Assembly (NCBI GenBank): GCA_965248105.1
Contig: CBDFIK010000005.1
Span: 648,683 to 712,682 of the forward strand
From: Bryobacterales bacterium
Lineage (GTDB): Bacteria > Acidobacteriota > Terriglobia > Bryobacterales > UBA6623
Length of the DNA: 64,000 nt
Reading direction: 5' to 3'
The notes below the pieces were generated by a model. The model searched no databases, was not told the DNA's origin, and worked only from the letters and a program-made list of their open reading frames with translations. Of the stretch, positions 7,769-64,000 are shown piece by piece. Within the stretch, counting starts at the first letter, position 1, and every line of letters begins with the position of its first letter. The position numbers were made by a program, and so were the translations under genes.

Positions 7769-7867
7769 AGGCTGCCAATCACCAATTTTCTGTCTGCTGC
7801 GTCGAGGCGCGCGTTGAAACACACAGAGGAAATTGGCTGACAGTCGTCATTTCCCAAGCCCCCATTT

Positions 7868-10800
7868 TCACACCTTCTCCATGTTCACCAGGAACCCCTT
7901 GTATTCGGGTGTTCCTGAGTTGGGGTCCATCACCGAAGGCGTCAGGTTGTTGATCAACGGGCCTTTCACACGTCCCAGAAATCCCCAGTGAATCGGCAGC
8001 CCAACGTGGTAGATCCGCCGACCGTTTACGTTGAGTCCTCGCATGCGCTTAGTGACCAGCGCGGGCCCTTCCACGCTGCCGCGAGCCGAGCTCACACGCA
8101 CCACGTCTCCGCTGCGAATGTTCTTCTCGTCAGCCAGCTCCGCCGGCAGTTCGACGAAGAAATTGGACTGCAGCTCTGAGGTGGCGGTGATGTGCTTTGT
8201 CCAGTAGTGGAAGTGTTCGGTAAGCCGGTAGGTGATCGCTACGTAGGGATATTTCGCGGCATCGCCGAGCGAGTCGAGGTCGCTTGAGAAAACCTTCATC
8301 GCGGGATTGCTTCCGACTTCGGGATGCAGCAGGTTCTCGACCGGCGACTCGGCCGGCTCGTAGTGCTCGGGGAACGGTCCTTCGACGAAATCCGACGCAA
8401 AGAGCTTAGCTACGCCTTCCGCCAACATGATGAAGGCCCCGTTAGCTTCCGGCGGTGCATCGGACTTGTAGTCGGGCACGTCGCCCGTCCAGCGGCCGTC
8501 TTTCCAACGGATCGCCGCGCGGCTCTCATCCCAGGGTTTCCCACTCGCGTCCGCGGATGCGCGGTTGTAAAGCACCCGCCGGTTTGCGGGCCAGCTCCAC
8601 GCCCAGTTGGCATAGAGGCCGAGCCCGGTCGGGTCCGCCTGCCCCTGGCGGGCGATCAGATTGCCGTCTTCCGTGACTGATCCCGAATAGAGCCAGTTGC
8701 CGCACAGAGTCGAGCCGTCGTCTTTCAAAGCGCCAAACCCCGGCACCTGGCGCCCGCTCGAAATCTCCTGTCCGCTGATCTCTGCTGCCACTTCTTCGAG
8801 CGAGGGCGCTACCGGGTTCGCGTAGCTCCAATCCATCGCCAGTAATGGCTCAGGAGCCGTACCTCCCTCTTCCTCGTAGAGTTCCCGGATCTTCAAGAAG
8901 AGGCGGGCTATGATTTCCTGATCGTCTTTGGCTTCACCGGGGGCGTCGAGAGCTTTGTACTTCCATTGCAGCCAGCGTGAGGAATTGACGAACGTGCCGT
9001 CTTTCTCCGCGAAGCAGGAGGCCGGTAGTAGGAAGACCTCCGTCTGGATATCCGCGGGATCGGTGACCGTGGGATAGTATTCTTTCGCCAGCGTTTTGGC
9101 TTTCCAGAAGGCCGCGGTTTCGGTCTCGAAGTTCTCCGCGACGATCAGCCATTTCAATTTCCCGAGCGCCTCGATCATCTTGACGGTGTTGGGCCCGCTC
9201 GCGACTGGGTTCATACCGAACGAGAGCATCCCTTCCACTTCGTCGGCGTACATCTTGTCGAAAAGGAAGCCCCAGCTGTGGTCCTCGCCTTCGGCGATCT
9301 TGGGCAGATAGTCGTATCCGAAATCGTTTTTCCGGGTCGCACTCTCGCCGTAGTAGGCCTTGAGCAGGCTGACCATAAACTTCGACGTGTTTTCCCAGTA
9401 GTTGAGCGAGTTCGGACGCAGAGGCTTTGGCGAGTTTGTTCTCACGTACTCCGCCAGCGTGGTCCAATTGGCCCTCGGCAGCTTCAAGTAGCCGGGAAGC
9501 ATGTTCCACGCGCCTAGGTCGGTGGCGCCTTGGATATTCGAATGACCGCGCTGTGCGTTGACGCCTCCCCCGGGGATGCCGATATTACCCAACAACAACT
9601 GCAGCATCGCCGCGGTATGGATCAACTGCACCGAGTGGCTGTGCTGCGTCCACCCGAGCGCGTAAAGGATGGTGCCCGAACGTCCGGCCCGGCCCGTCGA
9701 ACAGATGACCTCGGCGGCCTTCTCGAATGCCTCGGCCGAGCACCCGCAGATCGAAGCGACGGTCTGGGGCGTGTAGCGCGCATAGTGCTTCTTGAGTAAT
9801 TGAAAGACGGAGCGCGGGTGCTGTAGCGTTCGATCCACCTTGGCGTAGCCGCGCCCGTCGAGTTCGTATCGCCAGGTGGACTTGTCGTAGCGTTTGTTCG
9901 CCGCATCCCAACCCGAGAAATAGCCATTTTCAAAGGCGAAGCCTTCCGTTACCAGAAACGTTGAGTTCGTGTGCTCGCGCACGTAGTCGGCGTGGTATTG
10001 GTCGTGGGTCAGGGCGTAGTGGATCAGCCCGCCCAGGAAGGCGATGTCGCTGCCGGAACGAATCTGCACATAGCTGTCGGAAACCGCCGCTGTGCGATTG
10101 AAGCGCGGATCGACACACACCAGTTTGGCCTTGCGATGGCGTTTGGCTTCCATGACGAAACGGAAGCCGACGGGATGGTTTTCGGCCGGATTGCCGCCCA
10201 TCACCAACACGACGTCCGCGTTGGCGACGTCGGTCCAACCGTTGGTCATGGCCCCGCGGCCGAACGTGGCGGCCAAACTGACCACCGTGGGGCCGTGTCA
10301 AAGACGGGCCTGGTTTTCGTAAGCCAGCACACCCAGGCTGAACCGCAGCTTGCCGAGCAGGTAGTTAATCTCGTTCGTGTCGGTACAACCGCCGATCATG
10401 GCGACATTGGCGAGACGGTTGACCGTACGACCTTGCGGGTCGCGAGCTTCGAAACCCCGGTCGCGCGAGTCTTTGATCCGCCGGGCCATCTTTGCAATAG
10501 CCTCGTCCCAGGAAATCGCCTTCCACTCGGTCGCGCCCGGCGCGCGATAAAGCGGTCGTGTCAGCCGCCGATCGTTGACAACGAATTCCTTGAGCGAAAT
10601 GCCCTTGGAACACAGCGTCCCGCGATTGATCGGACTCGACGGATCGCCCTCGATGTGAACGACCGTCGGCTTGACGTTTTTTGCCTTGTCGCCGAGCGTG
10701 TGGATGACGACGCTGCAGCCGACAGCGCAGTAAGGACAAATACTGTGGGTCTGTGTCGTGCGCGCGATCTTCAGCTCGCGGGCGGCGGCCTGAGCGGGCC

Positions 10801-13249: not shown

Positions 13250-13427
13250 GTTCGCTGAGTTCGTCTTCAACGGTTCGCCGGGCCACTACCGTCTTGAAAG
13301 GCCACTCGAAGCACTATTGTCGCAGATGCCGACGGTGCCTCAGGCGATCGGTCTCGCCATCACCGAAGGACGTGCGCAGAGGTCCATCAAGTACTTGCGC
13401 TTCCGGGCTCCGCCCTCAGAATCGGAA

Positions 13428-28682: not shown

Positions 28683-28683
28683 A

Positions 28684-29983: not shown

Positions 29984-31375
29984 ATGACGGAACGAATCAA
30001 GGCCGTTCACATCGGGATCGGATCGGCCGCCGAGGAATCTTTGGTAAACGTGCAGGGACGCGAGTGGAATATCCAAGGGGCGGGATCTTGGTGGGAGTGT
30101 CTCAAGCAGCTTGCTGACGAGGAACAAGACGTCTTGGTCACAGGCACGGAGTTGGAAGGAATCTCCGTCGACAGGCTGATCGAAGAGGTACTGCGCCTCC
30201 GTCCGAGTCTAACAGTGGTGGTGCTGGCGCAACAGCCGGATTATTCCGAGGCCGCTCGATTAGCTCGCCTTGGCGCCGGCGACTATTTGCCGGCGACACC
30301 AGAGACTCACTTCTCGGCGGACGAAATCGTAGGCGGAATCAGACGCGCCCACGAGAACAACCCCTGGCGGACGTCCCGGGCACTACAGGAGACCTCTGGA
30401 GCTACGCCTGAGCTCGTCGGCCAGAGCAGTGCTATCCGTGGCGTCAGTCGGTTGATCAAACTTATCGCGCCGCGACAGTCAACGGTGTTAATCACCGGTC
30501 GCACGGGCACGGGCAAAGAACTCGTCGCGCGGGCCATTCATGCGGCCTCACCAAGGGCAGCTCATCCACTGGTAGTAGTCAACTGCGGCGCCATCCCTGA
30601 ACACCTGATTGAGGCGGAGTTGTTTGGTCACGTCAAAGGTGCCTTCACCGGAGCCATCGGTCATCGGGTGGGACGTTTCGAGCAGGCGCACCGAGGCGTT
30701 ATTTTCCTTGACGAAATCGGCGAAATGCCGCTTGAGATGCAGAGCAAGCAGCTTCGCGTGCTGCAGGAGCGCGAGTTCCAACGGGTGGGTAGCTCGGAAA
30801 CGATTAAGGTCGATATTCGAGTCGTCGCGGCAACGAATTGCGACCTGAAAGAACTGGTTCAACAGGGGAAGTTCCGCGAAGACCTCTACTACCGACTAAA
30901 TGTGGTTCCCCTATCTTTGCCGAGCCTGGCGGAGCGGATTGAAGACTTGCCGTCGCTTGTGCAGCACTTGCTGACGAAGATTTGCCGCCAAGAAGGCTTG
31001 TCCCTTATGCGCATGGTACCCGAGACCGTAGTTCGGTTGATGGAATATCACTGGCCGGGCAACGTGCGGCAGCTCGAAAATGCGATCGAGAAGGCGGTTG
31101 CCTTAAGCGGAGATCGCGAAATCCTCTATCCCAGCGACTTCCCCCTTCCGCCTCTCACTGCCGGCACGGCGCCTTCGGTAGCGCCGGACGTGCGGCTGCC
31201 TACCGAGGGGCTCGATCTCGACTCCGTGGTCGGTGGTTTCGAGCGCAGTCTGCTCGAACAGGCCCTGGAGCGAACCGGTGGCAACAAAAAACGGGCGGCT
31301 GAGCTGTTGAGAATCAAACGCACGACCTTTGCGGCCAAGTTGCGAGCGTCGAGCCAAGCCCGCTCCGGGGAATGA
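29984..31375 (+). CDS. Sigma54-dependent transcriptional activator (FleQ/FlrA-like) with degenerate receiver domain
   Basis: AAA+ core: Walker A ITGRTGTGKE, EAELFGHVKGAFTGA (GAFTGA loop), C-terminal Fis-type HTH GNKKRAAELLRIKRTTFAAKLR. The N-terminal receiver-like fold lacks the acidic pocket, the phospho-Asp and the Lys. ATG 29984 is preferred over TTG 29957. Confidence 0.85.
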   Translation: MTERIKAVHIGIGSAAEESLVNVQGREWNIQGAGSWWECLKQLADEEQDVLVTGTELEGISVDRLIEEVLRLRPSLTVVVLAQQPDYSEAARLARLGAGDYLPATPETHFSADEIVGGIRRAHENNPWRTSRALQETSGATPELVGQSSAIRGVSRLIKLIAPRQSTVLITGRTGTGKELVARAIHAASPRAAHPLVVVNCGAIPEHLIEAELFGHVKGAFTGAIGHRVGRFEQAHRGVIFLDEIGEMPLEMQSKQLRVLQEREFQRVGSSETIKVDIRVVAATNCDLKELVQQGKFREDLYYRLNVVPLSLPSLAERIEDLPSLVQHLLTKICRQEGLSLMRMVPETVVRLMEYHWPGNVRQLENAIEKAVALSGDREILYPSDFPLPPLTAGTAPSVAPDVRLPTEGLDLDSVVGGFERSLLEQALERTGGNKKRAAELLRIKRTTFAAKLRASSQARSGE

Positions 31376-31513
31376 GCGGCTGTGAAGTTCCCCGGCTCGG
31401 CTGAGCGACAAGATTCCGGGTGCTGACAACGGTTTGTCGCTTGGCGGTCAGCGGTTCTCTGATTCTAAAGGGCTGCCTTTTGGTCCCTGCCATGCAAGCA
31501 AGTCCAGAAAGAC

Positions 31514-31870
31514 ATGCTGCTCGGTTCACAAGCTTTGCTGATCGCCCGATACATGGACTTGCTATCGCTGCGACAGAAGTTGACCGCGACCAACATTGCA
31601 AACGCTGATACCCCGGGTTATCTGGCTCGGGATATCGATTTTGGCGAAGAGATGGCACGAGCCCTCGAGCAGTCTCCCGAAGGGGTTGCTTCGCCGCTGA
31701 TCGTCCGGCAGGTCGAAGGTCTAGCGATCAAGAACGATGGCAATAACGTTAGCCTCGACCGCGAATTGCGAGTGTTAGGGGAAACGGGTATCCGTTACTC
31801 GCTCGCCTCCTTGATGCTCCGGAACAACATCCAATCGGTTCGTTCGGCGATACGAGAAGGCCAGACGTAA
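31514..31870 (+). CDS. flgB: Flagellar basal-body rod protein FlgB
   Basis: LRQKLTATNIANADTPGYLARDIDF motif. Length and N-terminal spacing are like E. coli FlgB. Confidence 0.85.
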   Translation: MLLGSQALLIARYMDLLSLRQKLTATNIANADTPGYLARDIDFGEEMARALEQSPEGVASPLIVRQVEGLAIKNDGNNVSLDRELRVLGETGIRYSLASLMLRNNIQSVRSAIREGQT

Positions 31871-31892
31871 CGTAACAATCATCTAGCCACCT

Positions 31893-32354
31893 ATGAGTCT
31901 GTTTTCTATCTTGGATGTCAGTGCTTCGGCGCTCGCGGCTCAGCGCATGAGGGTCGAAGTGCTGGCGCAAAACATCGCCAACGCCGAAACAACACGGACG
32001 CCCGAAGGGGGGCCGTACCGGCGACGTCACGTGGTTTTCAAAGCCGAGCCGCAGCCCTTGTCTGGCTTTCAGGCGGTCTTGGCGCGTGTGCAGTCCCCGT
32101 CGGGATCGTCCGTTCCCCCCGACGTCCAGGGCGTCCGCGTTTCGGAGGTGAGTGTCGATAATACGCCCCCGGAAAGGCGTTATCTGCCGAGCCATCCCGA
32201 CGCCAACGCGGAAGGGTATGTCGACTTTCCGCCCTTTAATCCCGTGGAAGATATGGTCGACCTGACGGCGGGCGTGCGTTCCTATCAGGCCAACTTGGCG
32301 GTGGTGTCGGCGGTCAGAGAAATGATCACTCGAACGATTGAGATTGCCCGCTAG
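31893..32354 (+). CDS. flgC: Flagellar basal-body rod protein FlgC
   Basis: MSLFSILDVSASALAAQRMRVEVLAQNIANAETTRTPEGGPYRRR... and C-terminal YQANLAVVSAVREMITRTIEI. Confidence 0.9.
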   Translation: MSLFSILDVSASALAAQRMRVEVLAQNIANAETTRTPEGGPYRRRHVVFKAEPQPLSGFQAVLARVQSPSGSSVPPDVQGVRVSEVSVDNTPPERRYLPSHPDANAEGYVDFPPFNPVEDMVDLTAGVRSYQANLAVVSAVREMITRTIEIAR

Positions 32355-32480
32355 CTCTCTAGTTCCCCATGGCGGCGCCCCCCCCGGACAACAGGCAGCT
32401 CACAAGACGGGCGAGTCGGGCAGTGATTCGACTGGCCGAAACGAACGTGCGACACCCAAAATTTTCGGAGGACACGAGCG

Positions 32481-32777
32481 ATGGACCCAGTTGCATTAAG
32501 CAAGATTGCGCTACCCGAAATGATCTCCCGCGGCGAGCAAGCTCACGCCGGCGATGCTACCTCGTTTGCGAACATGCTGGGCGAGGCGCTTGAGCGGGTG
32601 AAACAGCTCGGCGACGAAGCCGACCAGGAAGTGAAACGGCTGATGGCCGGCGAGCCGGTCGAGCTGCATCGAGTCATCATGGCCGGCCAGCAAGCCGGCC
32701 TGGCCTTCGAGTTGATGATGAGCGTTCGTAACAAAGTCGTGGAAGCCTATCGGGAGGTTATGCGCATGCAAGTCTAG
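32481..32777 (+). CDS. fliE: Flagellar hook-basal body complex protein FliE
   Basis: 98 aa. SFANMLGEALERV...ELHRVIMAGQQAGLAFELMMSVRNKVVEAYREVMRMQV. Confidence 0.85.
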   Translation: MDPVALSKIALPEMISRGEQAHAGDATSFANMLGEALERVKQLGDEADQEVKRLMAGEPVELHRVIMAGQQAGLAFELMMSVRNKVVEAYREVMRMQV

Positions 32778-33156
32778 CGGCTTGCCGGAAACCGCGGGAG
32801 GACAGTTCTCGCCCGTCTTGCCCATGAGCCGGATCATGACTGCTTTGGCCGGCGCCGGATCAGTTTTTCCGAACAAGTTGCATCCTGCCTGTTAGGGATG
32901 GGACGCTCGCACAAACTTTCGGGAACTTACCCCTATAAATCCAGGGCTGCGATGTGGCGCGGAAGAAGTTCTTGTATATCTTGCTCTGTCGATCGAGATT
33001 CGTGATGAGTGTCATCCTGTGCCGCGCCGCTCGCCAAACAAGCCGGGAGGCTCTCGAAGTTCTCACTCACGTCGCTGGGAGAAGGCGGTCAAAGCCGGGC
33101 TCGGCGGCGCACTGCCGGCAGCAGGGCAGTAAGGGAATTCGCACCACAAGACGGTA

Positions 33157-34818
33157 ATGGGGAACCTGGTTCTCGCGATTGCGAATCTTAGCAAGCAGGT
33201 CGCCGGGCTGTTTCAGGGTTTTACCTTGCAACGGAAGATCGCCCTGCTGGTTCTGGGAGCGCTCGTCTTCGGGGGCATCTCAGCGTTTCGCTGGGTCATG
33301 CTGGAGTGGGCCTTTCGGCCCCTGTATACGGATCTGAGCCAGGAGGAAGCCGGAGCCGCCGTGGCGCGGCTCAAGGAGCTGCAGGTTCCCTACAAACTGG
33401 CCGCCGGGGGCCAAACGATTCTCGTGCCGGAACCCAAGCTGGCGGAGGTGCGGCTCCAGCTAGCCTCCGACGGATTGCCGCGACAGGGACGCCTCGGTTT
33501 TGAGCTGTTTGACGAGTCCAGTTTCGGGGCCACGGAATTTGCCGAGCACGTCAATTTCCGGCGGGCCTTGGAAGGCGAGCTCGAGCGGTCCGTTCTCTCC
33601 TTGGCCGAAGTCGAGCGGGCGCGGGTGCACATCAGTCTCCCCCAAAAGTCTGTTTTCCTCAACCGAGAGCAGCCCGCCAAAGCATCGGTCGTACTTCAGC
33701 TGCGACGCGGCGCCGGGCTGGGTCGGGAGAAGGTCGAGGCGATCGGGTTTCTGGTGTCCAGCGCTGTGGAGGGGCTCGATCCCCAGCGAGTCGTTATCGT
33801 CGACACGGCAGGTACCGTGCTGGCGCGGCCCCGTCCTGAAGGCGAGGGCTTCACGGATGAACAGCTCGAGTACCAAAGGAAGATCGAGAGGCGAATCCAA
33901 AACAACATCGTGGCCACGCTGGAGCCCTATGTCGGTTTCGACAAGGTTCGAGTGGCCGTGGCCGCTGAATGTGATTGGAAGGGTGGCGAAGAAACGAAAG
34001 AAGTCCTGGATCCAAACACGATCGTCATAACAACGCAAAAATCGGAAGACACGACGCAGCCGATCCAGGAAAGCGGCGTGCCCGGAACAGCCTCCAACTT
34101 GCCGCGCCAGCCGGCCCAGCCAAGAACCGGAGCGGTAGCTTCGTCGCGGAAAGTCGAGACGACTAATTTCCAGACAAGCCGCACCGTCACCCGCACGGAC
34201 CTCGAACGCGGGGAGGTCCAGCGTTTGTCCGTAGCCGTCCTAGTCGATCACATCGTCGAACTTGACGAGGAAGCCGGCAAGTTGATCCGAAAGCCTCGGA
34301 CCCCAGAGGAGATGGACATTTTTCGACAGCTGGTGGTCGCCGCTGCGGGCATACGCGAAGAGCGCGGCGACGTGCTGACAATCCAAGCGCTGCCCTTCAC
34401 GATCTTTGAAGAGCCTCCCGTGCCTCCTCCGCCCCCCGCTCCACCCGAGGAGGAACTTTTCTCGTCAGAGTGGTTCAAAAAGTTCCGATATTACCTTATA
34501 GCGGGAGCTTCCGTCATTCTGGTCGTGATGATCTCCGGCTGGCTCCTGGTCCGCCTCAAGAGAAAAGTGGCCACGATCAAAGCCGAAGCCGAGGCGCGGC
34601 GCGCGGCGGCAGAAGCGCAGCGTGAGATTGAAGCGGCCGAGCAAGAAGCTCGCCAGAGCGAAGCCGAGGAGGCCCGCATGCTCAAGGGACTGAGGCTGGC
34701 GACGCTCCAGAGCTCGAAAGCCCAGGTCCTCAAGAAGCACCTCGAAGAGACGGCCGCCAAGGACCCCGAAGCCTTCGTCCAACTACTGCGCAGCTGGATT
34801 CACGAAGATGATAAGTAA
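33157..34818 (+). CDS. fliF: Flagellar M-ring protein FliF
   Basis: 553 aa. N-terminal TM, YscJ/FliF ring domain (YTDLSQEEAGAAVARLKELQVPYKL...GGQTILVPE), second TM near the C-terminus, charged tail. Confidence 0.9.
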   Translation: MGNLVLAIANLSKQVAGLFQGFTLQRKIALLVLGALVFGGISAFRWVMLEWAFRPLYTDLSQEEAGAAVARLKELQVPYKLAAGGQTILVPEPKLAEVRLQLASDGLPRQGRLGFELFDESSFGATEFAEHVNFRRALEGELERSVLSLAEVERARVHISLPQKSVFLNREQPAKASVVLQLRRGAGLGREKVEAIGFLVSSAVEGLDPQRVVIVDTAGTVLARPRPEGEGFTDEQLEYQRKIERRIQNNIVATLEPYVGFDKVRVAVAAECDWKGGEETKEVLDPNTIVITTQKSEDTTQPIQESGVPGTASNLPRQPAQPRTGAVASSRKVETTNFQTSRTVTRTDLERGEVQRLSVAVLVDHIVELDEEAGKLIRKPRTPEEMDIFRQLVVAAAGIREERGDVLTIQALPFTIFEEPPVPPPPPAPPEEELFSSEWFKKFRYYLIAGASVILVVMISGWLLVRLKRKVATIKAEAEARRAAAEAQREIEAAEQEARQSEAEEARMLKGLRLATLQSSKAQVLKKHLEETAAKDPEAFVQLLRSWIHEDDK

Positions 34819-35839
34819 CGCCGAAAACGTCAACGAAGTCTTCCCGGGGTTGCGCAAGGCGGCGATCGCCATTGTCACTCTGGGCGACGACGTAGCCGCG
34901 GATGTGTTTCGCTTTCTCACCGAAGACGAAGTCCAACTGGTCGGGCGGGAAGTTTCGAAGCTCAACAAGGTGACTCCCGAACAAGCCGAGAACACCCTGC
35001 AAGAATTTCACGAGATGTCGATGGCGCAAGACTACTTGATGTCTGGGGGCATTGAGTACGCCAAGCGGGTAATGAACAGTGCCTTTGGTCCCGATCGAGC
35101 TCGATTGATTATCGACAGGGTGGTCAGGTCGTTGGGCGAGGAAATTTCCACCTTCGACACCCTTCAAAAGGCCGACCCTCTGCAAGTTGGCAAGTTCATC
35201 GAGGCGGAGAGTCCTCAGACGATTGCTCTGGTGTTGTCACACCTTAACAGCAGTTCGGCGGCCGGGATGCTACTGGCGTTACAACCCGATGTTCGGGCCG
35301 ATGTCGCCATGCGGATGGCCAGTCTCGACCAGATCTCGCCGGAAATCGTCAGCCGCATCGCAGGCATCCTCGATCAAAAGCTGAGCTCGCTGGGACAATT
35401 CAGCCGCGAGTCTTATGGCGGCATACCCGCTGTCGCGGAAATGTTCAACCGGCTGGAGTCGAATGCAGGCCAGGAGCTGCTCGGCCAGATCGAAGACACC
35501 GATTCGGAGATGGGGGAGGCCATCCGCAATCTCATGTTTGTCTTCGAGGATCTGCTGCTGATCGATTCCATTGGCATGCGCGAGATTCTGTCTCGAGTGG
35601 ACAAGAAAACGCTGACGATCGCACTGAAAGGGACCAGCGATGGACTGCGTGAGCACTTCTTCGGCAACATGTCGGAACGGGGAGCGGACATGTTGCAGGA
35701 GGATATGGAAGCGCTGGGGCCGATCAAGGTCCGGGACGTCGACGGGGCGCAGCAGCAGATCATCGGCATCGTGCGAGCGCTGGAGACCGAGGGTGTGATC
35801 AGTCTGAAAGGCGCGGTAGGCGAACAGTACGTTGTCTAG
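34808..35839 (+). CDS. fliG: Flagellar motor switch protein FliG
   Basis: 343 aa. GLRKAAIAIVTLGDDVAADVFRFLTEDEV..., MFVFEDLLLID..., C-terminal torque-helix region. Overlaps the fliF end by 11 nt. Confidence 0.9.
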   Translation: MISNAENVNEVFPGLRKAAIAIVTLGDDVAADVFRFLTEDEVQLVGREVSKLNKVTPEQAENTLQEFHEMSMAQDYLMSGGIEYAKRVMNSAFGPDRARLIIDRVVRSLGEEISTFDTLQKADPLQVGKFIEAESPQTIALVLSHLNSSSAAGMLLALQPDVRADVAMRMASLDQISPEIVSRIAGILDQKLSSLGQFSRESYGGIPAVAEMFNRLESNAGQELLGQIEDTDSEMGEAIRNLMFVFEDLLLIDSIGMREILSRVDKKTLTIALKGTSDGLREHFFGNMSERGADMLQEDMEALGPIKVRDVDGAQQQIIGIVRALETEGVISLKGAVGEQYVV

Positions 35840-36542
35840 GGTAATCAAGGATAGTACGGTTGCTGCCGGTCCGCTCCAACCGGCCGAGATTCAGCGCCCA
35901 CCTTTGCCTGGGCTATCCCCTTTCGCACCTAAACAAGTAGGCGAGCTGGAGTCGGGTTTAGACGCTGCCGCGTCGCGAGCAATGGGACTCGGTGCGCAAG
36001 GCGCGGCTCATGCGGCACCAGGACCAACCGAATCTCCCAAGGATGGAAAGGTCGATCTCGAGGAGGTTCGCAAGGAAGCGTTTCAGGCGGGCTTCGCCGA
36101 AGGCGAGCGAGCCGGCACCGAAAGCGCGATGCGGCAAATGCAAGGCGCGATTGCGTCATTCGGCCAGGTGGCGCACGAGCTGACGTCCGTAAAACCCCGC
36201 CTACGCGCCGAGGCGGAACGGGAACTGGTCGCGCTGTCGCTGGCCATCGCACGGCGCATCATTCATCGCGAGCTGCATGTGGACCCCACGACAGTCTTGG
36301 CGATTGTTCGCGCCTGCTTGCAAGAATTTGACCGCGTCGAGATTCAATGTTTGACCGTCAGTCCCGAGGATCTCGAGGCGGTCGCCACGTATTTCAGGGA
36401 GAACCCGGTTCCGAACTTGAAGCTGGTCGCCGACCCCAGCGTCTCCCGCGGGGGCGCCGTATTTCAGACCAACCAGGGGGAACTCGATGCCCGGATCGAG
36501 ACACAATTACAGGAGATCGAGTACGGTCTGGCGGACCGCTGA
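35832..36542 (+). CDS. fliH: Flagellar assembly protein FliH
   Basis: 236 aa. Central coiled region and C-terminal FliH/YscL-type domain (ALSLAIARRIIHRELHVDPTTVLAIV...RGGAVFQTNQGELDARIETQLQEI). TTG start overlaps the fliG end. Confidence 0.75.
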   Translation: MSRVIKDSTVAAGPLQPAEIQRPPLPGLSPFAPKQVGELESGLDAAASRAMGLGAQGAAHAAPGPTESPKDGKVDLEEVRKEAFQAGFAEGERAGTESAMRQMQGAIASFGQVAHELTSVKPRLRAEAERELVALSLAIARRIIHRELHVDPTTVLAIVRACLQEFDRVEIQCLTVSPEDLEAVATYFRENPVPNLKLVADPSVSRGGAVFQTNQGELDARIETQLQEIEYGLADR

Positions 36543-36547
36543 AAACA

Positions 36548-37876
36548 GTGAGGGAAGATCATCTCAGGCAGGTTTTGCAGTCTCAAACGGCGCGGATTGA
36601 AACGCTGAGTCCAATTCGGGCGAGCGGCGTCGTCTCGGAAGTCGTCGGGCTGCTGATTGAGTCCGACGGACCACCTGTATCGGTGGGGGATCTTTGCGAG
36701 ATTGAGACCGCTGCTGGGAACAGAGTTCGAACGCAAGTCGTCGGATTCCGTGGTCGCCGGGTGCTATCGATGCCTCTCGCGGAAGTCGATGGTCTGCAGC
36801 TTGGGATCCCGATCGTAGCTCGCCGCGAAGAGGCTCGCGTTGGGGTCGGAGAAGAGCTATTGGGCCGGGTTGTCGACGGCTTTGGACGCCCAATCGATGA
36901 CAAAGGGCCGATCCACGCCAGCAAGTTCTACGAACTTTATAAGGCTCCTCCAGGGCCGATGGAAAGAGAACCGATCGTTGAGCGGCTGACGACCAGCGTT
37001 CGCGTCATCGACGGCCTCCTTACTTGCGGCAAGGGCCAGCGGGTCGGTTTATTTGGTGGCTCTGGCGTCGGGAAAAGCACCCTGCTGGGCGCCCTGGCTC
37101 GCCATAGCGAGGCGGACGTCAACGTGATCGCGCTAATTGGCGAGCGAAACCGCGAGGTGGGCAGCTTCTTGCACGATACGCTTGGTGCGGAGGGCCTCAA
37201 AAAATCCGTGGTGGTGGCAGCCACCTCCGACCGCCCGGCGCCGGTTCGGGTCCGGGCGACCTTCCTGGCCACAGCCGTCGCTGAGTTCTTTCGCGATCAG
37301 GGGCGCGAGGTGCTGCTCATCATGGACTCGCTCACGCGGTTTGCGATGGCCCAGCGAGAGATCGGACTGGCGGCCGGCGAGCCTCCCAGCCAGAAGGGTT
37401 ACACACCATCGGTGTTCCAACTCTTGCCCAAGATTCTGGAACGGGCGGGAAATTTCGCCCGCGGGTCGATCACGGGTTTCTACACCGTCCTTGTGGAAGG
37501 CGACGACATGAACGAACCTGTGGCTGACGCTCTTCGGGCCATCCTCGACGGACACATCATCTTGTCCCGTGGGTTGGCGGAGTCCAACCACTACCCTGCC
37601 GTCGATGCTCTAGAAAGCACGAGCCGCTTGGCTAGCAGCGTTTCCGCACCGGAGCACCTCGAAAGCGCGGGTCGCCTGCGGGACTCGCTCGCTACTTATC
37701 GCCGGACCGAGGACTTGATTAACTTGGGGGCTTACGCGGAAGGGTCAAATCCGAAAGTGGACACCGCCATTCGGGCTCGAGACGAGATCCTGAGTTTCCT
37801 GAAGCAGGACTTGTCGTCCCACGAACCTTTCGAGAACACGCTCGAACAGCTCCAAGCGCTGGCAGGAAAGCTGTGA
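36548..37876 (+). CDS. fliI: Flagellum-specific ATPase FliI
   Basis: Walker A GGSGVGKST and Walker B VLLIMDSLTRFA, with an F1/T3SS ATPase fold. GTG 36548 lies 6 nt after the fliH stop. The ORF-track extension to 36347 overlaps fliH in another frame. Confidence 0.9.
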   Translation: MREDHLRQVLQSQTARIETLSPIRASGVVSEVVGLLIESDGPPVSVGDLCEIETAAGNRVRTQVVGFRGRRVLSMPLAEVDGLQLGIPIVARREEARVGVGEELLGRVVDGFGRPIDDKGPIHASKFYELYKAPPGPMEREPIVERLTTSVRVIDGLLTCGKGQRVGLFGGSGVGKSTLLGALARHSEADVNVIALIGERNREVGSFLHDTLGAEGLKKSVVVAATSDRPAPVRVRATFLATAVAEFFRDQGREVLLIMDSLTRFAMAQREIGLAAGEPPSQKGYTPSVFQLLPKILERAGNFARGSITGFYTVLVEGDDMNEPVADALRAILDGHIILSRGLAESNHYPAVDALESTSRLASSVSAPEHLESAGRLRDSLATYRRTEDLINLGAYAEGSNPKVDTAIRARDEILSFLKQDLSSHEPFENTLEQLQALAGKL

Positions 37877-38325
37877 GGGCGTTCTCGTTCCCGCTGGAAA
37901 GAGTTTTGGCCTTCCGCCGGCTGCAGCTCGACATCGCCGAGGCCGGGCTGAAGGAAACCCTTGCCCGCAAGTCTTACTTGCGACAGCGTGGAAGGGCGCT
38001 CGAGCAACAGTCGCGGCAACTGATGGATGAGACCGCGCGACTTCCCATGACAACCGGCGCCGCCTTGCGGTCTACGGACGCCTACGTAGAACGATTGGGA
38101 AGGGAACGCCGTCATGCTTCCGCAACCGAGCGAAAGCTCGAGCAGGACCGCCGCGACCAGTTAAGCGCCGTCGTAGAAGCGCGCCGCCAGGTTCGGCTCC
38201 TCGAAACGCTACGTTCGAAGAAACTGCGGCCGTACGCTAAGGCAACCGCCCGTCTACAGGAGTCCGAAGTAGCCGAACTCCATTTAGGGAAGTGGCTCCG
38301 GGTGAACCGGCGCGCCACTGAATAA
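37873..38325 (+). CDS. fliJ: Flagellar export chaperone FliJ (coiled-coil)
   Basis: 150-aa Arg/Glu/Leu-rich coiled-coil ORF. Its ATG overlaps the fliI stop by 4 nt, at the canonical position after fliI. Confidence 0.6.
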   Translation: MRAFSFPLERVLAFRRLQLDIAEAGLKETLARKSYLRQRGRALEQQSRQLMDETARLPMTTGAALRSTDAYVERLGRERRHASATERKLEQDRRDQLSAVVEARRQVRLLETLRSKKLRPYAKATARLQESEVAELHLGKWLRVNRRATE

Positions 38326-38396
38326 CGCCCAGGACTCACTCTCCCCACCGCTCCGTTACACGCCAGCCCATACCGATCTGTTGACCGCCTGGAAAT

Positions 38397-38420
38397 GTAG
38401 GGGCACGGCATGCCGTGCCC
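38397..38420. repeat. Family A palindromic repeat
   Basis: GTAGGGGCACGGCATGCCGTGCCC, preceded by CCGATCTGTTGACCGCCTGGAAAT, the same left context as the copies at 26360 and 27186. Confidence 0.9.
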
Positions 38421-38650
38421 GCGGCGACCTCTGGTCGCCGTTGCCGCGGGAACAGCCGCGTAGCCCCCTCACGGGTGCAGCTCTATCCGCGTATGGCTCA
38501 GGCCCCGTTTGATCGCGGCCTCTGCTCGGCAGGGAACGATCCGGTAGTGTACCCCGCGTTCTGAAGACCGCCGGCCGACCCGTGAAGTGATCAGATGGGC
38601 CGGCACCGGGCCAGCAGTGACAAAAAACCGCCCCGGCGACAGAAATTTGC

Positions 38651-38677
38651 TCAACCATTGGAAGGCAAGACCGATAA
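38651..38677 (+). promoter_or_regulatory. Sigma28 (FliA)-like promoter candidate for the flagellin gene
   Basis: TCAA-N15-ACCGATAA versus the consensus TAAA-N15-GCCGATAA. Lies 92 nt upstream of the fliC ATG. Confidence 0.4.
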
Positions 38678-38768
38678 GCTGCCTTGTAACTCATAAACGG
38701 GTGGGGCCCAGCCCGCACCGGCCAGGAAGGGACTCCTGGCGAAACTCATACCAAGGAAGGAAAACACT

Positions 38769-41153
38769 ATGCCAGGCTTTTCAATTGTTACCAACGTAGC
38801 GTCGTTGATCGCCCAGGAAAAACTGGGTTTTACCAATGACCTGCAACTGCGAACTATTACGAGGCTGACGTCGGGCCTCCGTATCAACTCCTCGGCGGAC
38901 GACGCGGCCGGGTTGGCCATTGCCAACCGGTTCCGGTCCGATATTTCGGTGTTGCAACAAGGCGTTCGAAACGCCGCGGACGGACTCAGCACCCTGCAAA
39001 CCATCGACGGCGGCCTCAACAACATTTCGCTGCTGATTGACCGTGCCAGAACGCTGGCCACGCAGTCGGCATCCGGCACGTTTACGGGCGACCGAGCCGT
39101 GCTGAACACCGAGTTCACATCGGTTCTCACCGAAATCGACCGCCAGGCCCAGGCTATCGGCCTCGATCCGAGCGGCTCATTCAACGCGCTGCTGTCGGTA
39201 TTCATCGGCGGCGGGCGCGCTAACAACAACATCACGGAGACCACCAACGGATCGGTTCAGATCGACCTAAGTAATTCGTCCGTCAATGCCAATAGGCTCG
39301 GCCTGAAGGGTGTCCAAGCGCTAGGAGGCACTGAGGGGACCACCGATATCGGCAGTTCCTCGACCACCAGCGTGCAATCAATCGCCGCGGATACGACGAA
39401 CACGGGCTCGGTGCGCACCAGCGGCTTTACGGAGTTTCACTTCGTCGGCCCCGGTTTCGCGGACACGGATCAGGCGCAGCTTTCCGTGAACCTAACGGGT
39501 GTGGTCGACACCACGACCCTGGCCAGCGCGATCAATTCCGCCATTTCTGGGTTCTCGGTCAGCTCCTCCTCGGGGCAGGCCTTCAAGGACGCTGGCATCA
39601 AGGCCGTAATCAATACGGATACGACCGGAAAGCAGCAGTTGGCCTTCACCTCCAGCAGTACGGCATTTCAAGTGCAGGCCGGCGACCAATTGGCCAATGC
39701 GTTGCTCGGTAACTTCAGCAGCGGCGCGACCGGCGAATCGCTCAACGTCACCCGCACCGGCGCCGCGACGGGCGGTGTCGCAACGGCCGGCACCATCAAA
39801 GTTCGCATCGACGGTGGCGGGCTAACGACGGCGCAGACTCTTACCGTTACCGCAGCCGGCGGTGAGAATCAAACCGCTCTTACAGCCCTTCTGAACACCC
39901 AACTGCTGGCCAACACCAGCCTGGTTTCGGCCGGCTACTCGGTGTCGTCCGACGGCACGAACCTGACTATCACGAACGACGAGGGTGAGAGGTTCGACGT
40001 GATTGTCGCCGGGGACGTGGGCGACACGTTTGGGTTCGGTACGGGCGAGCTGGGCGGCGGCGTGCACGGCACGGCTACCGACGTGACCTACTCCACCATT
40101 ACCGGCAGCGCGGCTTTCGACAACACCGTCGGCGGAACCGCGACGCTTTCGATCTACGTCGAGGGTTCGGAAGGCGCCAGCTCCGAGACCTTGGCGGTCG
40201 TAGTCGCCACGGATACAACCGATGTCGAACTGGTCGACCAGATCAATTCCCTGATCCAGGCGAACTCCTTGTTGAGCACCACCGACATACAGGCTACGCA
40301 GACGGGCGGTACGATTACGCTTGCATCCGCCTCTGGCACGCTGTTCCGGATCTCGGTGGACGATCTCGCGACGCCTGCTCTGAAGTTCGGCGACAACGAT
40401 ACCGGCAGCATCACCGCCGGCACTTTCGCCGAAGCGGTGGACAGCACGAACTTCATCAACTCCGGGGGAGCCCAGGCGACAGCCTCCACGGCCTTCACCA
40501 GGCTCAACTTCGGAGATGACGTTCAAAGCCTGGCCTTCAGCGCGAAGGACTCGGCCGGCGTGGTCCAGAACCTGGTCGTGAACCTCAGTTTCGCTAATTC
40601 GTTCACGCTTGACCAGGCGGTCGACAGGATCAACAGTGAGTTGCAGGCATCGAACAACAGCACGCTGAAACAGATCGTGGCTGTGAAAGAGAGAGTTGCC
40701 GGCGGTACCACCGAGAATATCCGTTTCCTCAGTACGCTGTCGTCCGGTTTCTCGGTGAGTATTGGCGACTTGGTCAACGACCACGGTGTTGCCAACACGG
40801 ACTCGAGCGCCCTACTGAAGGCTTCCACGCAGCTCGCGGGAGGCTCGGTCGCCGACATCTCTTCGAAAGAAAACGCGGAGACCGCGGTGACGCTGCTGGC
40901 GACCGCCGTGTCGAAACTGGCGGCGGTTCAAGCCGACGTCGGTAAGGGCCAGAACCAGTTACAATTCGCGATTGGTCTGGCTACGACTCAGATCACCAAC
41001 CTCTCGGCTGCCGAAAGTCGGATCCGAGATGCCGACCTGGCGGCTGAAGCGGCCAACCTTACTCGAGCCGCCATTCTGCAGCAGGCCGGCGTGGCTGCAC
41101 TGGCGCAAGCCAACTCCGCGCCACAAGCCGTTCTGGCACTGCTACGAGGATAA
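38769..41153 (+). CDS. fliC: Flagellin, giant form (794 aa) with a repetitive central region
   Basis: N-terminal D0/D1 (LRINSSADDAAGLAIANRFRSDISVLQQGVRNAADGLSTLQTIDGGL) and C-terminal D1/D0 (QNQLQFAIGLATTQITNLSAAESRIRDADLAAEAANLTRAAILQQAGVAALAQANSAPQAVLALLRG). The ~550-aa insert holds four IN-motif-like modules. Confidence 0.9.
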   Translation: MPGFSIVTNVASLIAQEKLGFTNDLQLRTITRLTSGLRINSSADDAAGLAIANRFRSDISVLQQGVRNAADGLSTLQTIDGGLNNISLLIDRARTLATQSASGTFTGDRAVLNTEFTSVLTEIDRQAQAIGLDPSGSFNALLSVFIGGGRANNNITETTNGSVQIDLSNSSVNANRLGLKGVQALGGTEGTTDIGSSSTTSVQSIAADTTNTGSVRTSGFTEFHFVGPGFADTDQAQLSVNLTGVVDTTTLASAINSAISGFSVSSSSGQAFKDAGIKAVINTDTTGKQQLAFTSSSTAFQVQAGDQLANALLGNFSSGATGESLNVTRTGAATGGVATAGTIKVRIDGGGLTTAQTLTVTAAGGENQTALTALLNTQLLANTSLVSAGYSVSSDGTNLTITNDEGERFDVIVAGDVGDTFGFGTGELGGGVHGTATDVTYSTITGSAAFDNTVGGTATLSIYVEGSEGASSETLAVVVATDTTDVELVDQINSLIQANSLLSTTDIQATQTGGTITLASASGTLFRISVDDLATPALKFGDNDTGSITAGTFAEAVDSTNFINSGGAQATASTAFTRLNFGDDVQSLAFSAKDSAGVVQNLVVNLSFANSFTLDQAVDRINSELQASNNSTLKQIVAVKERVAGGTTENIRFLSTLSSGFSVSIGDLVNDHGVANTDSSALLKASTQLAGGSVADISSKENAETAVTLLATAVSKLAAVQADVGKGQNQLQFAIGLATTQITNLSAAESRIRDADLAAEAANLTRAAILQQAGVAALAQANSAPQAVLALLRG

Positions 41154-56549: not shown

Positions 56550-56880
56550 CAGTCAGACAAGGAAACTCGGGAAGAGGCCACGCCCGCCGTAGCTCCCGCA
56601 CCCATGAGATCTCGGATGTCGAAAACGACACCCTGCTTGCGCTGCCAAAGGTCGTGACGCGACGCCTTGTAAAACCTCCCTGTGTAGATTAGCCTCGGGC
56701 GCCGGCCGTTTGACAGCCCTTCAGCCTCGCTCTAGCATGGGGACAGAAGAATTCAAGGAATCGGGGACTAACCCAGACGTTGGGTTGCGCGGAGCCTAAG
56801 AATCAGCGAGCCGCGGGGCGGCGAGGTGGACTGTCCCGGGACTTTTCACATCTTCCGAAGAGCCCGGGTGAGCCGTGGCG

Positions 56881-58065
56881 ATGAAACTGCCCATCTACAT
56901 GGATTATCACGCCACGACGCCGGTCGACCCGCGCGTTGTCGAGGCGATGTCGCCCTATTTCAGCGAGAACTTCGGCAACGCCGCCAGCCGGAACCACGCC
57001 TTCGGCTGGCGCGCGGAGGAGGCTGTGGGAAGCGCCCGCAGTCAGATTGCCGAGCTGATCGGAGCCGTTCCAAGGGAGATCGTCTTTACCAGCGGGGCAA
57101 CAGAGTCCGACAACCTGGCGATCAAGGGCGTCGCTGAGATGCATGCCGAACGCGGCAACCACATCATTATTTGCGCTACGGAACACCGCGCTGTCCTCGA
57201 TACCTGCCGCAGGCTCGAGAAGCAAGGCTATCGGATAAGCTACCTGCCCGTTCAGCCGGACGGTCTGATGGATCTGGAAACGGTTCGCCGCGCACTCAGC
57301 GACAAGACGATCCTGATCTCGATCATGTACGCGAACAACGAAATCGGCGTCATCCAGCCGATCGCCGATATTGGGCAACTGGCGCGAGATCACGGAGTCC
57401 TGTTTCACGTAGATGCCGCGCAGGCCGTGGGGAAAATACCGCTCGATGTTGAACGAGACCAAATCGATCTCATGTCGTTTACCGCCCACAAGATCTACGG
57501 TCCCAAAGGAATCGGAGCGCTGTACGTAAGGCGAAAACCGCGCCTGCGGCTGAGCCCGCAAATGGACGGTGGCGGCCATGAGCGCGGCATGCGTTCGGGG
57601 ACGCTCAACGTGCCGGGCATTGTCGGCTTCGGCAGGGCCTGCGAGCTGTGCCAAGCCGAGATGAACGAAGAAGCTGCCCGGCTGCGGTCGCTACGAGACA
57701 AGCTCAAGGACGGCATCCTAAACCGCATCGCGGACGTGTCGATCAACGGGAGCCTCGAGCATCGCCTGCCGCATAATCTCAACGTGAGCTTTGCCCACGT
57801 TGACGGTGAATCTCTGCTGATGGGGCTGAACGACATCGCGGTATCGAGCGGCTCCGCGTGCACGACGGATCTTCCCGAACCTAGCCACGTCCTCCAGGCG
57901 CTGGGGGTGAAGAATGAGTTGGCCCATAGCTCTCTGCGCTTCGGCCTGGGCCGTTTCAATACGGAAGAGGAAGTCGATTACGCAATCGACAGGGTCGCCG
58001 AGGTCGTCTCCCGCCTGAGAGAGCTGTCGCCGCACGGGCCGGCGGCGCGAACCTTGTCACCGTAG
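56881..58065 (+). CDS. iscS: Cysteine desulfurase IscS/NifS
   Basis: [23 protein letters not shown]... is collinear with the E. coli IscS N-terminus. PLP Lys context [14 protein letters not shown], active-site loop SSGSACTT. Confidence 0.9.
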
Positions 58066-61974: not shown

Positions 61975-63093
61975 GTGGCAAACAAACGGGACTATTACGA
62001 AGTTTTGGGCGTTGACCGTGGCACCGGGGAAGGCGCGATCAAGAGCGCCTACCGCAAGCTGGCGTTGAAGTATCATCCTGATCGCAATCCCGACAGCTCG
62101 GAAGCAGAGGAGAGATTCAAGGAGGCGGCCGAGGCCTACAGTGTGCTCAGCGACGCCGAACGACGCAGCCGCTATGACCGTTTCGGGCACGATGGGCTTG
62201 CCGGTGTAAGCGGCGGCGGATTCGACCCACGAGACTTCAGCGATTTCGCCGACATTTTCGGGGACTTCTTTGGCTTTGGTGATCTATTCGGGGGACGGCA
62301 GCGTAGGGCCAGGCCACGACGCGGCACCGACCTGCAGTACGACCTGGAAGTGGATTTCGAAGACGCCGTCTTCGGCCTCAGCACCGCGATCCAGTTTCCG
62401 CGTAACGAAGCCTGCGGCGAGTGTCGAGGGTCGGGGGCGGCGGCAGGCAGAGGCCCGACGACTTGCTCCACCTGCGGGGGTCGAGGGCAGGTGTACTACC
62501 AGCAGGGGGTTTTCTCGGTCGGTCGCACTTGCTCCCGGTGCGGCGGTTCAGGCCAGGTCATCGAGAAACCCTGCAGTACCTGTGGAGGTCGGGGACAACT
62601 CCGTAAGCAATGCAAGCTGCCGGTGAACATCCCTCCCGGCGTCGACAACGGCATTCGACTGCGCCTAGGTGGCGAAGGCGAAGCGGGATCGCTGGGCGGC
62701 CCGCCCGGCGACTTATATGTTGTGCTGCGCGTTCGCGACCACCCGATTTTCGAGCGGATGGAAAGCGATCTGCATTGCGAGGTGCCGATCAACGTGGCAC
62801 AGGCTGCCCTGGGAGCTCAGATCACCGTGCCGTCCCTTGAGGGGCAGGCCCAACTGAAGATTCCACCTGGCGTCGAGACCGGTCGCCAATTTCGTCTTCG
62901 CAACCGGGGAGTTGCTCATGTGCAGAGCGGCCGGCGGGGCGATCTGGTCGTTCATATCAAAGTCGTGGTTCCTTCCAAACTCACCAAGGAGCAGCGCAAA
63001 TTTTTCGAGTCGCTGCTTGAAGTCTTGCCTGTCGATAATTCCCCTACAGAAAAAGGCATCTTCGACAAAGTCAAAGACTACTTCACGAACTGA
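61975..63093 (+). CDS. dnaJ: Molecular chaperone DnaJ
   Basis: J-domain ([10 protein letters not shown]...[11 protein letters not shown]), G/F-rich linker, four CxxCxGxG zinc-finger repeats. GTG 61975 gives MANKRDYY. The ORF-track start at 61960 is also GTG. Confidence 0.9.
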
Positions 63094-63205
63094 GCGATCC
63101 CGAGGGAAGGCTCGAGGGCTGTGCCCTACCGGGGAGGGTCGTGCGCCAACGCAGAGCGCCCACCGGGGAACAGCCGCTCGCCGGCTCGTTGAGTATGATG
63201 AAGGC

Positions 63206-63667
63206 GTGCCCTTCCCATTCGGCGGCGAGCTTCTTCCGGTCGGCTCGGAAGCCCCGGATTTCCAGCTTCCTGATGAGACCGGCAACGTCGTTCGGCTCTC
63301 CGATTTCCACGGTCGCCGCCCCGTCGTGCTTGTCTTCTACGTCATGGACGCCACGCCCGGCTGACGCAAGCAACTATGTCAGTTGCGGGACAACTGGGCG
63401 GCCTTCACGGAGCACGGCATCACACTGTTCGGCGTTAATCCCGGGAGCTCGCGCAGCCATCAAAAGTTCAAAAGCGCTCACGAGTTTCCGTTTCCCTTGC
63501 TGGTTGACAAGGGAAGAAAGGTTGCTGTTCGCTTCGGTGCAGCCGGGTTTTTTGTCAAACGGTCTGTCTACGGTATCGGGATCGACGGGCGAGTTCGGTT
63601 CGCGGAGCGCGGCATGCCGTCTCCCGAGAGGATCCTGGCGGCCGTCAAGGACGCTGCGATTCGCTAG
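63206..63667 (+). CDS. bcp: Bcp/PrxQ-type peroxiredoxin with in-frame TGA (63362-63364) at the peroxidatic-Cys position; candidate selenoprotein (alternative: pseudogene)
   Basis: ORFs 62912..63364 and 63383..63667 share a frame. The joined sequence is (V)PFPFGGELLPVGSEAPDFQLPDETGNVVRLSDFHGRRPVVLVFYVMDATPG-[TGA]-RKQLCQLRDNWAAFTEHGITLFGVNPGSSRSHQKFKSAHEFPFPLLVD..., versus E. coli Bcp ...TPGCTVQACGLRD. The Cys 5 residues downstream is conserved. GTG 63206 is the only in-frame start candidate. Confidence 0.6.
63370..63396 (+). promoter_or_regulatory. Candidate SECIS hairpin(s) downstream of the bcp TGA
   Basis: There are two mutually exclusive perfect 6-bp stems. One is GCAACU(63370-75)/AGUUGC(63381-86) with loop AUGUC. 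The other is CAGUUG(63380-85)/CAACUG(63391-96) with loop CGGGA, extendable by a U:G pair. Confidence 0.35.
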
Positions 63668-64000
63668 CCCGCGGTGAATGTCCCCCGCCTCGGAAAACGG
63701 GCGCAGTCAGATTTTGGTCGTCTCACTCATGCTGCACGAAGCAGTTGCGGGAAAAGTCAGGCGACGTCCACGATGGGCAACTGTCCCGGGGTGAGCGCAG
63801 TAACCCCGAGTGTGGGCCCGCAGGCTAACGCCAGCGGCTTCCATGAGGAGGCTCGTCATTGTCAAGCGAGGGAGTCGGACAACTTCAGTTATTGGCGAAC
63901 GTCCGACCGGGCTTCCATCCGCACTCGGGTGGCGTCATTTCGTCGACGCGGCGCTCTATGAAGTTCGGTCCAGGCGGCGCTGCTCGCTCTGTATCGGCCT

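Follow-up and report, generated by a model that had tools for sequence, protein, structure and literature searches.

Gene structure of the split peroxiredoxin

The 64,000-nt stretch analyzed here (positions 648,683 to 712,682 of contig CBDFIK010000005.1 from a Bryobacterales bacterium; hereafter the window) carries a peroxiredoxin (Prx) gene of the Bcp/PrxQ type that is interrupted by an in-frame TGA. Two open reading frames (ORFs), at 62912..63364 and 63383..63667, lie in one frame, and all that stands between them is the TGA at 63362-63364 and six sense codons (63365-63382). When the TGA is read as selenocysteine (Sec), the gene is complete at 63206..63667 on the + strand, with a GTG start, 153 codons, the UGA as codon 53 and a TAG stop at 63665-63667. 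The joined translation from the GTG at 63206 reads MPFPFGGELLPVGSEAPDFQLPDETGNVVRLSDFHGRRPVVLVFYVMDATPG-U-RKQLCQLRDNW...AIR over its 153 codons, and past the TGA the frame continues as RKQLCQLRDNWAAF...AAIR. The position of the GTG agrees with the N-termini of homologs that have cysteine (Cys) in place of the stop (MSWLFGGELL...).

With Cys put for the stop, the translation matches Pfam AhpC-TSA (PF00578) at E 2.1e-32 and 112 bits (cut-off 26), covering profile positions 1-123 of 124. Solved Bcp/PrxQ structures also align, foremost 3drn (E 2e-20) and 5enu (E 1.7e-18), and the whole set, which includes 5epf and 2ywn, spans E 2e-20 to 2e-15. The in-frame UGA (63362..63364, +; U53) occupies the peroxidatic position (Cp) of TPG-U, where 5enu has the C of TPGC and the chain of 3drn reads TPGS. 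Five residues further on lies Cys58 (TGT, 63377..63379, +). A U/C-x4-C spacing is the arrangement of atypical 2-Cys Bcp enzymes, and it is from this spacing that Cys58 is assigned as the putative resolving residue. Arg119 (CGG, 63560..63562, +), within KRSVYGI, aligns with ERSTFLI of 5enu and is probably the catalytic Arg, judging from what is known of the Prx family. Since the score against the NCBIfam Bcp equivalog NF006960 (78.8 bits) falls under its cut-off of 140, the protein is a divergent member of the Bcp subfamily.

A preliminary description of this DNA had put the two ORFs in the same frame, split only by the TGA and six sense codons, with the TGA on the peroxidatic Cys column, a second Cys retained at +5 and an open, still Bcp-like frame downstream. 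All of this holds: the coordinates and translation agree, the AhpC-TSA profile and the TPGC alignment of 5enu place the TGA on the Cp column, the Cys at +5 is Cys58, and the AhpC-TSA match runs end to end, with a stop only at the TAG. The interval 63206-63667 is thus one intact Bcp/PrxQ gene with UGA at its catalytic Cys codon, which gene callers split. Elsewhere in the window TGA is an ordinary stop; among the 35 open frames that are 300 codons or longer, it closes 17, and dnaJ ends with it at 63091-63093.

Conservation of the TGA among relatives

A protein search returned full-length Cys homologs with up to 70% identity, together with three 94-residue fragments (P0044, P0087, P0088) that are 84-93% identical and represent the second half-ORF as called in other assemblies. 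The expectation that the locus would be annotated in pieces is therefore borne out in public data. On the contigs behind these fragments (L001/L002, L003 and L004) the TGA is kept and both halves are open, and the grpE-dnaJ-prx order of the window is repeated in L001. The nearest matches listed in a DNA pattern scan are four metagenome-assembled genomes (MAGs) of Bryobacterales (L030, L042, L027 and L062), which by itself makes an origin of the window in Bryobacterales probable. The TGA and both open half-frames are kept in eight relatives (L001-L004, L027, L030, L042 and L062). In the relatives the column reads TGA or TGC/TGT, and no frameshift was found.

The ratio of non-synonymous to synonymous divergence (dN/dS) was computed pairwise among the eight Bryobacterales Sec forms, including pairs in which synonymous divergence is saturated (dS >1). 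Upstream of the TGA the ratio is 0.08-0.77. Downstream, 18 pairs give a usable dS, and in 17 of these the ratio is 0.07-0.37. The downstream exception is the near-identical pair L003/L042, where a ratio of 1.64 comes from one synonymous and five non-synonymous differences. Between the window and L027 or L062, pairs with saturated synonymous divergence (dS >1), the upstream ratio is 0.18-0.26. The relatives thus show neither frameshifts nor neutral evolution, two possibilities on which the preliminary description had made its reading depend.

The scan was made over one genome per GTDB species with the pattern TAY-N6-GAY-N3-ACN-CCN-GGN-TGA-N12-TGY-N6-MGN-GAY, which corresponds to Y-x2-D-x-TPG-TGA-x4-C-x2-RD. 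The TPG-TGA-x4-C-x2-RD arrangement occurs in at least 120 stretches, and all 123 genes in them read as Bcp around the motif. Among the matches listed, the frame stays open for about 90-145 codons past the TGA in 119 of the 123 genes, the other four ending early or leaving their locus. The lineages represented among these matches include Acidobacteriota, Gemmatimonadota, Chloroflexota, Planctomycetota, Binatia, Poribacteria, Delta- and Gammaproteobacteria, Actinomycetota and an Alicyclobacillus isolate, besides others. These sequence comparisons indicate that the TGA is not a lesion. In a neighbor-joining tree of 230 sequences, Sec and Cys forms are interleaved, and a Fitch count gives about 34 Sec/Cys changes, a rough figure from a protein too short for the number to be trusted.

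Two of the matching stretches hold two separate Sec-Bcp genes each, within 8 kb: a Dehalococcoidia MAG (L017, DAOUJQ010000011.1) and a Binatia MAG (L020, DATBLC010000002.1). The pairs point to tandem or local duplication of a selenoprotein gene. In L017 the copies lie about 470 bp apart, and both are missing the Pro of the active-site motif discussed below. A further observation concerns a 762-nt metagenomic contig (L245, protein P0001), which carries a Cys-form ortholog that hardly differs from the window gene in its upstream region and over its first 45 residues. The ortholog has YPMDETPHC at the active site and diverges more strongly in the C-terminal half. This contig may record a recent Sec/Cys replacement or a recombination between close relatives.

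Hairpins downstream of the UGA

Two stem-loops lie just 3′ of the UGA in the window. The distal one, hairpin (b), is the proposed apical stem-loop of a selenocysteine insertion sequence (SECIS) and spans 63379..63397 (+; UCAGUUG/CAACUGG, -6.6 kcal/mol). Its 5′ arm UCAGUUG (63379-63385) and 3′ arm CAACUGG (63391-63397) enclose the loop CGGGA (63386-63390), which consists of the Arg-Asp codons of the C-x-x-R-D motif. The 7-bp stem begins 14 nt past the UGA and places the apex at nt 27. Numbered with the U of UGA as nt 1, the helix begins at nt 18, a position common to hairpin (b) and the apical helix of the SECIS in fdnG, a formate dehydrogenase gene of the same window. The proximal stem-loop, hairpin (a), is GCAACU-AUGUC-AGUUGC at 63370..63386 (+), with -6.7 kcal/mol and its apex at nt 17. 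The AGUUG arm is common to both, which makes the two mutually exclusive.

Sec and Cys forms compared

As a control, 120 stretches were collected with the same pattern but with TGY for TGA; filtering and de-duplication left 113 Sec forms and 111 Cys forms. A hairpin of at least 6 contiguous bp with its apex 20-30 nt past the codon is present in 51 of the 113 Sec forms and 19 of the 111 Cys forms (Fisher p 7e-6), and one of at least 7 bp in 30/113 and 4/111, respectively. The difference is sharpest for apices at 27-29 nt, where hairpins of at least 6 bp number 40 in Sec forms and 2 in Cys forms. In a control zone with the apex at 36-52 nt, such hairpins are not enriched in Sec forms (25, against 35 in Cys forms). 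The local minimum free energy (MFE), expressed as a mean z relative to synonymous-codon permutation, is -1.05 for Sec forms and -0.09 for Cys forms (Mann-Whitney p 2e-9); this p-value and the Fisher value overstate independence, because the members are phylogenetically related and the two sets come from different collections. The comparison indicates that a position-specific hairpin is particular to the Sec forms and that the Cys forms are without it.

The closest relatives show the same difference within one clade. All nine Sec forms of the clade preserve hairpin (b) (-6.6 to -10.6 kcal/mol), and in the six closest Cys orthologs, L245-L250, it is disrupted (-2.6 to -4.1 kcal/mol), so the stem-loop does prove to be conserved where Sec would be inserted. 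The QLCQLRD peptide is the same in three of these six orthologs (L245-L247), and a downstream RRM gene is common to L001 and the Cys orthologs L246, L247 and L250. For the Leu of C-Q-L-R-D (63383-63385), the Sec forms of the clade (L001-L004, L027, L030, L042, L062 and L086) all use UUG, and the Cys orthologs L245-L247 use CUG or CUC. It is UUG that pairs with the CAA (gaC-AAC) in the 3′ arm of hairpin (b).

Which of the two hairpins behaves like a SECIS was judged from ungapped, codon-anchored alignments with Gln at +3, comprising 31 Sec forms (A2) and 29 Cys forms (A3). In register (b), 61% of the cells are paired in Sec forms and 43% in Cys forms, and cells changed on both sides number 32 and 11; in register (a), the figures are 66% and 58% paired, with 19 and 5 cells changed on both sides. 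The arms of register (b) are swapped wholesale elsewhere, CAGUUG/CAACUG becoming GCAUA/UAUGC in a gammaproteobacterial group and GUCUG/CAGAC in L039. In register (a), pairing is almost as common in Cys forms as in Sec forms, so it is mostly a by-product of the CAR...NUG codons of Q-L...Q-L, and hairpin (a), once considered as the main SECIS candidate, was dropped and is probably incidental. The preliminary description had offered two alternative hairpins without choosing between them; both exist, but only the distal one at 63379-63397 behaves like a SECIS, and the proximal one at 63370-63386 does not.

The strongest alternative nonetheless accepts Sec insertion and holds that the functional SECIS is hairpin (a), or (a) and (b) together, with (a) competing and tuning the efficiency. 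The two hairpins are equally stable (-6.7 vs -6.6 kcal/mol), and it is (a) that forms the MFE choice of the 49-nt region. Its AUGUC loop has a GU, like the fdnG loop; it is kept in L030, L062 and L086, with five of six pairs in L027, and it scores above shuffles in the Sec alignment. However, besides the small Sec/Cys difference in register (a) just described, the apex of hairpin (a), at nt 17, is too far 5′ for the 20-30 nt zone that is enriched in Sec forms and stands 6-7 nt nearer to the UGA than the fdnG SECIS loop. Furthermore, neither L039 nor the gammaproteobacterial group has kept hairpin (a), and in both of them compensatory changes preserve hairpin (b). A functional role for hairpin (a) is thus considered unlikely, and hairpin (b) is retained as the SECIS candidate.

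The register of the hairpin varies among Sec-Bcp subfamilies (L005-L124, nt 10-45 past the UGA). A group with the motif TKEACGFRD has a GUU triloop at nt 21-23 (GCGG-GUU-CCGC), the group of the window and the gammaproteobacterial group have a 5-nt CGNGA loop at nt 25-29, and other Sec-Bcp subfamilies have 8-nt loops. In each subfamily, the residues past R-D change in a way that maintains complementarity to the C-x-x codons.

Probable selenocysteine use in the organism

The window holds an fdnG-fdnH-fdnI-fdhE cluster at 4826-10879 on the - strand, in which fdnG encodes a Tat-signal molybdopterin formate dehydrogenase that reads ...ENQARL-U-HGPTV... at an in-frame TGA. Rfam finds a SECIS_3 element there at 10245..10303 (-), with 65.3 bits against a gathering score of 63 and the UGA at 10298-10300; the canonical SECIS that the preliminary description saw in fdnG is therefore real by this measure. 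Because fdnG carries both the UGA and SECIS_3, the organism very probably decodes UGA as Sec. The fdnG gene is also a second selenoprotein gene in this window that ORF calling would split.

A class-V aminotransferase gene (Aminotran_5, E 1e-89) of the IscS/NifS/CsdA/selenocysteine-lyase type lies at 56875-58065 (+), 5 kb upstream of the Sec-Prx gene.

Proposed mechanism and alternative explanations

It is very probable, from sequence evidence, that 63206-63667 encodes a 153-residue thioredoxin-dependent Bcp/PrxQ peroxiredoxin with Sec in place of the peroxidatic Cys. The continuity of the gene, the TGA column, purifying selection on both sides of the TGA, a hairpin specific to Sec forms and a second Sec gene are directly supported. 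For Sec insertion, SelB binding at hairpin (b) and the redox reactions with their reductant, we infer the following course. During translation, SelB·GTP·Sec-tRNA(Sec) would recode the UGA at 63362-63364 as Sec53, SelB being recruited by a small in-frame SECIS, namely hairpin (b) with its 7-bp stem and 5-nt G-rich loop. Sec53 would then attack the peroxide, as family knowledge of atypical 2-Cys Bcp enzymes suggests, and Cys58 would resolve the resulting selenenic acid to an intramolecular selenenylsulfide. A thioredoxin-type reductant would reduce this selenenylsulfide and regenerate the enzyme.

Several observations weigh against this interpretation. Hairpin (b) is short and weak (-6.6 kcal/mol), and a competitor of equal energy shares one of its arms. 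The 49-nt region has a z of +1.3 relative to dinucleotide shuffles and of +0.68 relative to synonymous-codon permutations; because this folding energy is unremarkable, support for the SECIS was taken from the comparison with relatives set out above. That comparison itself draws its Sec and Cys sets from different collections (genomes vs metagenomes) and treats related sequences as independent. At close range, a 52-nt block over the UGA and hairpin is invariant in the four closest sequences, yet a 35-nt upstream block is invariant too, so close-range conservation alone is not diagnostic. The CGGGA loop is without the GU dinucleotide found in the fdnG element. Covariance-model scanning, a check proposed in the preliminary description, did not bear the element out: at 63150-63700, no SECIS model of Rfam 15 matched up to E 10 in gathering and permissive scans, which returned only chance hits, JUMPstart and lncRNA fragments among them. 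The SECIS_3 of fdnG is picked up by the same Rfam search. Finally, Pfam scans of 35 ORFs detected no selA, selB or selD in the 64-kb window, and ARAGORN detected no tRNA-Sec or any other tRNA gene there; the Sec machinery is therefore inferred from fdnG.

Another explanation dispenses with selenium. The UGA could be read by a near-cognate tRNA as Trp or Cys, or it could terminate translation and leave a 52-residue peptide, perhaps with a separate 94-residue C-terminal fragment. In E. coli, UGA is regarded as leaky when the next base is C, the context found here. The weakness of the hairpin fits this explanation as well, as do a TTG start of the second ORF at 63383 and the 94-residue fragments that gene callers have emitted into public data (P0044, P0087, P0088). 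However, such a fragment, having neither the Cp nor the Thr-Pro-Gly loop, cannot be a peroxidase, and purifying selection acts on the first 52 codons as one frame with the rest of the gene. Moreover, at least 120 species have TGA exactly at Cp, and a hairpin at this distance is much commoner in the Sec forms as a group than in the Cys forms; a TGA at Cp combined with such a hairpin is a signature of Sec recoding rather than of leakiness. The organism also has another Sec gene that bears a SECIS. Selenium-free decoding or termination is accordingly rated a very unlikely account of this locus.

A recent nonsense mutation (TGC/TGT to TGA) that made the gene a pseudogene, or a mistake in sequencing or assembly, is effectively refuted as the source of the TGA. 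One transversion would suffice, and the exact 94-residue fragment of the window was not found in a collection of 15 billion proteins. However, the TGA recurs in assemblies made independently of one another from separate samples (ERZ25067264, ERZ25072670, ERZ21829562 and ERZ23496031, besides four Bryobacterales MAGs). Neither additional stops or frameshifts nor an overlapping ORF with homology on another frame or strand were seen, and dN/dS past the TGA stays well under 1 at saturated synonymous divergence.

Valine in place of the motif proline

The window protein departs from the PxxxTxxC motif at one position. Thr50 and the Cp position (UGA) are present, and the Pro at -7 is replaced by Val46 (GTC, 63341..63343, +), giving FYVMDATPGU. 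The motif Pro is present in 111 of 111 Cys forms and in 103 of 113 Sec forms, and the six closest Cys orthologs retain it (FYPMDETPxC). The other 10 of the 113 Sec forms, which represent about four lineages, have Val, Leu or Thr instead, a count made on related sequences. Val is found in six distinct Bryobacterales-clade Sec sequences of the 113, and also in L004 and L042. The sequences without the motif Pro are the window, L001, L003, L004, L027, L030, L042, L062, the two copies in L017, L071 and L092.

As far as these alignments go, loss of the motif Pro seems to be tolerated only when Cp is Sec, and the Pro counts suggest that Sec relaxes a structural requirement of thiol peroxidases. Since the two hairpins are mutually exclusive through the AGUUG arm, they could also act as a bistable element that tunes Sec insertion against termination. 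That the active site was remodelled as the Bryobacterales clade switched to Sec, and that recoding perhaps became tunable, is a speculative combination of these ideas that we hold to be improbable. The loss of Pro in Sec forms only is a small lead for enzymologists.

Relation to known selenoproteins

The novelty of the gene is decided by published selenoproteome surveys, from which Sec-containing Prx are known, as the preliminary description had said; the family has been known for about 20 years. COG1225 is Bcp. In the Sargasso Sea survey, the second most abundant family, with 43 genes, is "Peroxiredoxin (Prx), COG1225, TXXU" (PMC1088965). A genome survey of 2006 counted 12 Sec-Prx genes, inferred five Cys-to-Sec conversions and recorded Sec-peroxiredoxin in organisms that include Syntrophobacter fumaroxidans, Anaeromyxobacter and Geobacter metallireducens (PMC1794560), while a survey of 2016 found 91 Sec-Prx genes in 78 organisms (PMC5029168). 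A review of 2026 places "Peroxiredoxin (Prx) PF00578 TxxU" among the verified families and stresses PxxxTxxU (PMC13188914). Sec use is also on record in Acidobacteriota, where Occallatibacter riparius has three known selenoprotein genes (PMC12013277). The gene in the window is an unannotated member of this established Sec-Prx family.

Compared by its published family description, the bacterial Sec-Prx family shares with the window protein the Pfam family, probably the COG, Sec at the peroxidatic T-x-x-U, widespread Cys homologs and a SECIS, in the window a proposed one, that follows the UGA directly in frame and has a small apical loop containing G. The Syntrophobacter case of the 2006 survey has a counterpart in L006, a Syntrophobacter MAG with the same arrangement. 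Unlike the Sec-Prx of the surveys, the present gene belongs to Bryobacterales (Acidobacteriota), a lineage unnamed there, and its sub-clade has VxxxTxxU for PxxxTxxU and Arg or Gln for Thr after the Sec. The protein resembles E. coli Bcp and the atypical 2-Cys PrxQ structures (3drn, 5enu, 5epf, 2ywn) in fold family as judged by sequence, in TPG-C/U-x4-C-x-x-RD and in the aligned Arg, but differs in having selenium for sulfur at Cp and Val for Pro at -7.

PrxU of Eubacterium acidaminophilum was also considered as a possible ortholog and was ruled out, the score of 32.7 bits lying far below the NF040737 cut-off of 270. Both proteins have Sec at the peroxidatic position of a peroxidase with the AhpC/TSA fold, but PrxU belongs to another Prx subfamily, and its NF040737 profile has 233 positions, compared with the 153 residues of the window protein. 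To our knowledge, PrxU is without the U-x4-C arrangement. The review of 2026 gives it as an experimentally verified Sec-peroxiredoxin (Söhling et al., 2001, as cited in PMC13188914).

With the E. coli fdhF-type SECIS and the SECIS_3 of fdnG, hairpin (b) shares its place in the coding region just 3′ of the UGA and a small G-containing loop. Unlike these elements, it is a 7-bp mini-hairpin without a long lower stem, and its 5-nt CGGGA loop has no GU.

No concept is changed by these findings, as Sec-Prx, Sec/Cys interconversion and in-frame bacterial SECIS are all established. Their bearing is on annotation: in public protein collections, the gene and its relatives are present only as 94-residue C-terminal fragments (P0044, P0087, P0088). 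Owing to this fragmentary annotation, soil Acidobacteriota seem to have no intact copy of the peroxidase, although they probably make a selenium-dependent one. With TGA at Cp of a Bcp in at least 120 species-level genomes, the supply of selenium could bear on peroxide defence in soil and sediment beyond what annotations indicate.

Other features of the window

A fusion of an N6/N4 DNA methylase and an Mrr-type restriction endonuclease (553 residues, 11609-13270, -) adjoins the fdn operon. A flagellar cluster at 27876-41153 (+) comprises motA, motB, a sigma-54 activator, fliF, fliG, fliH, fliI and an unusually long flagellin of 794 residues.

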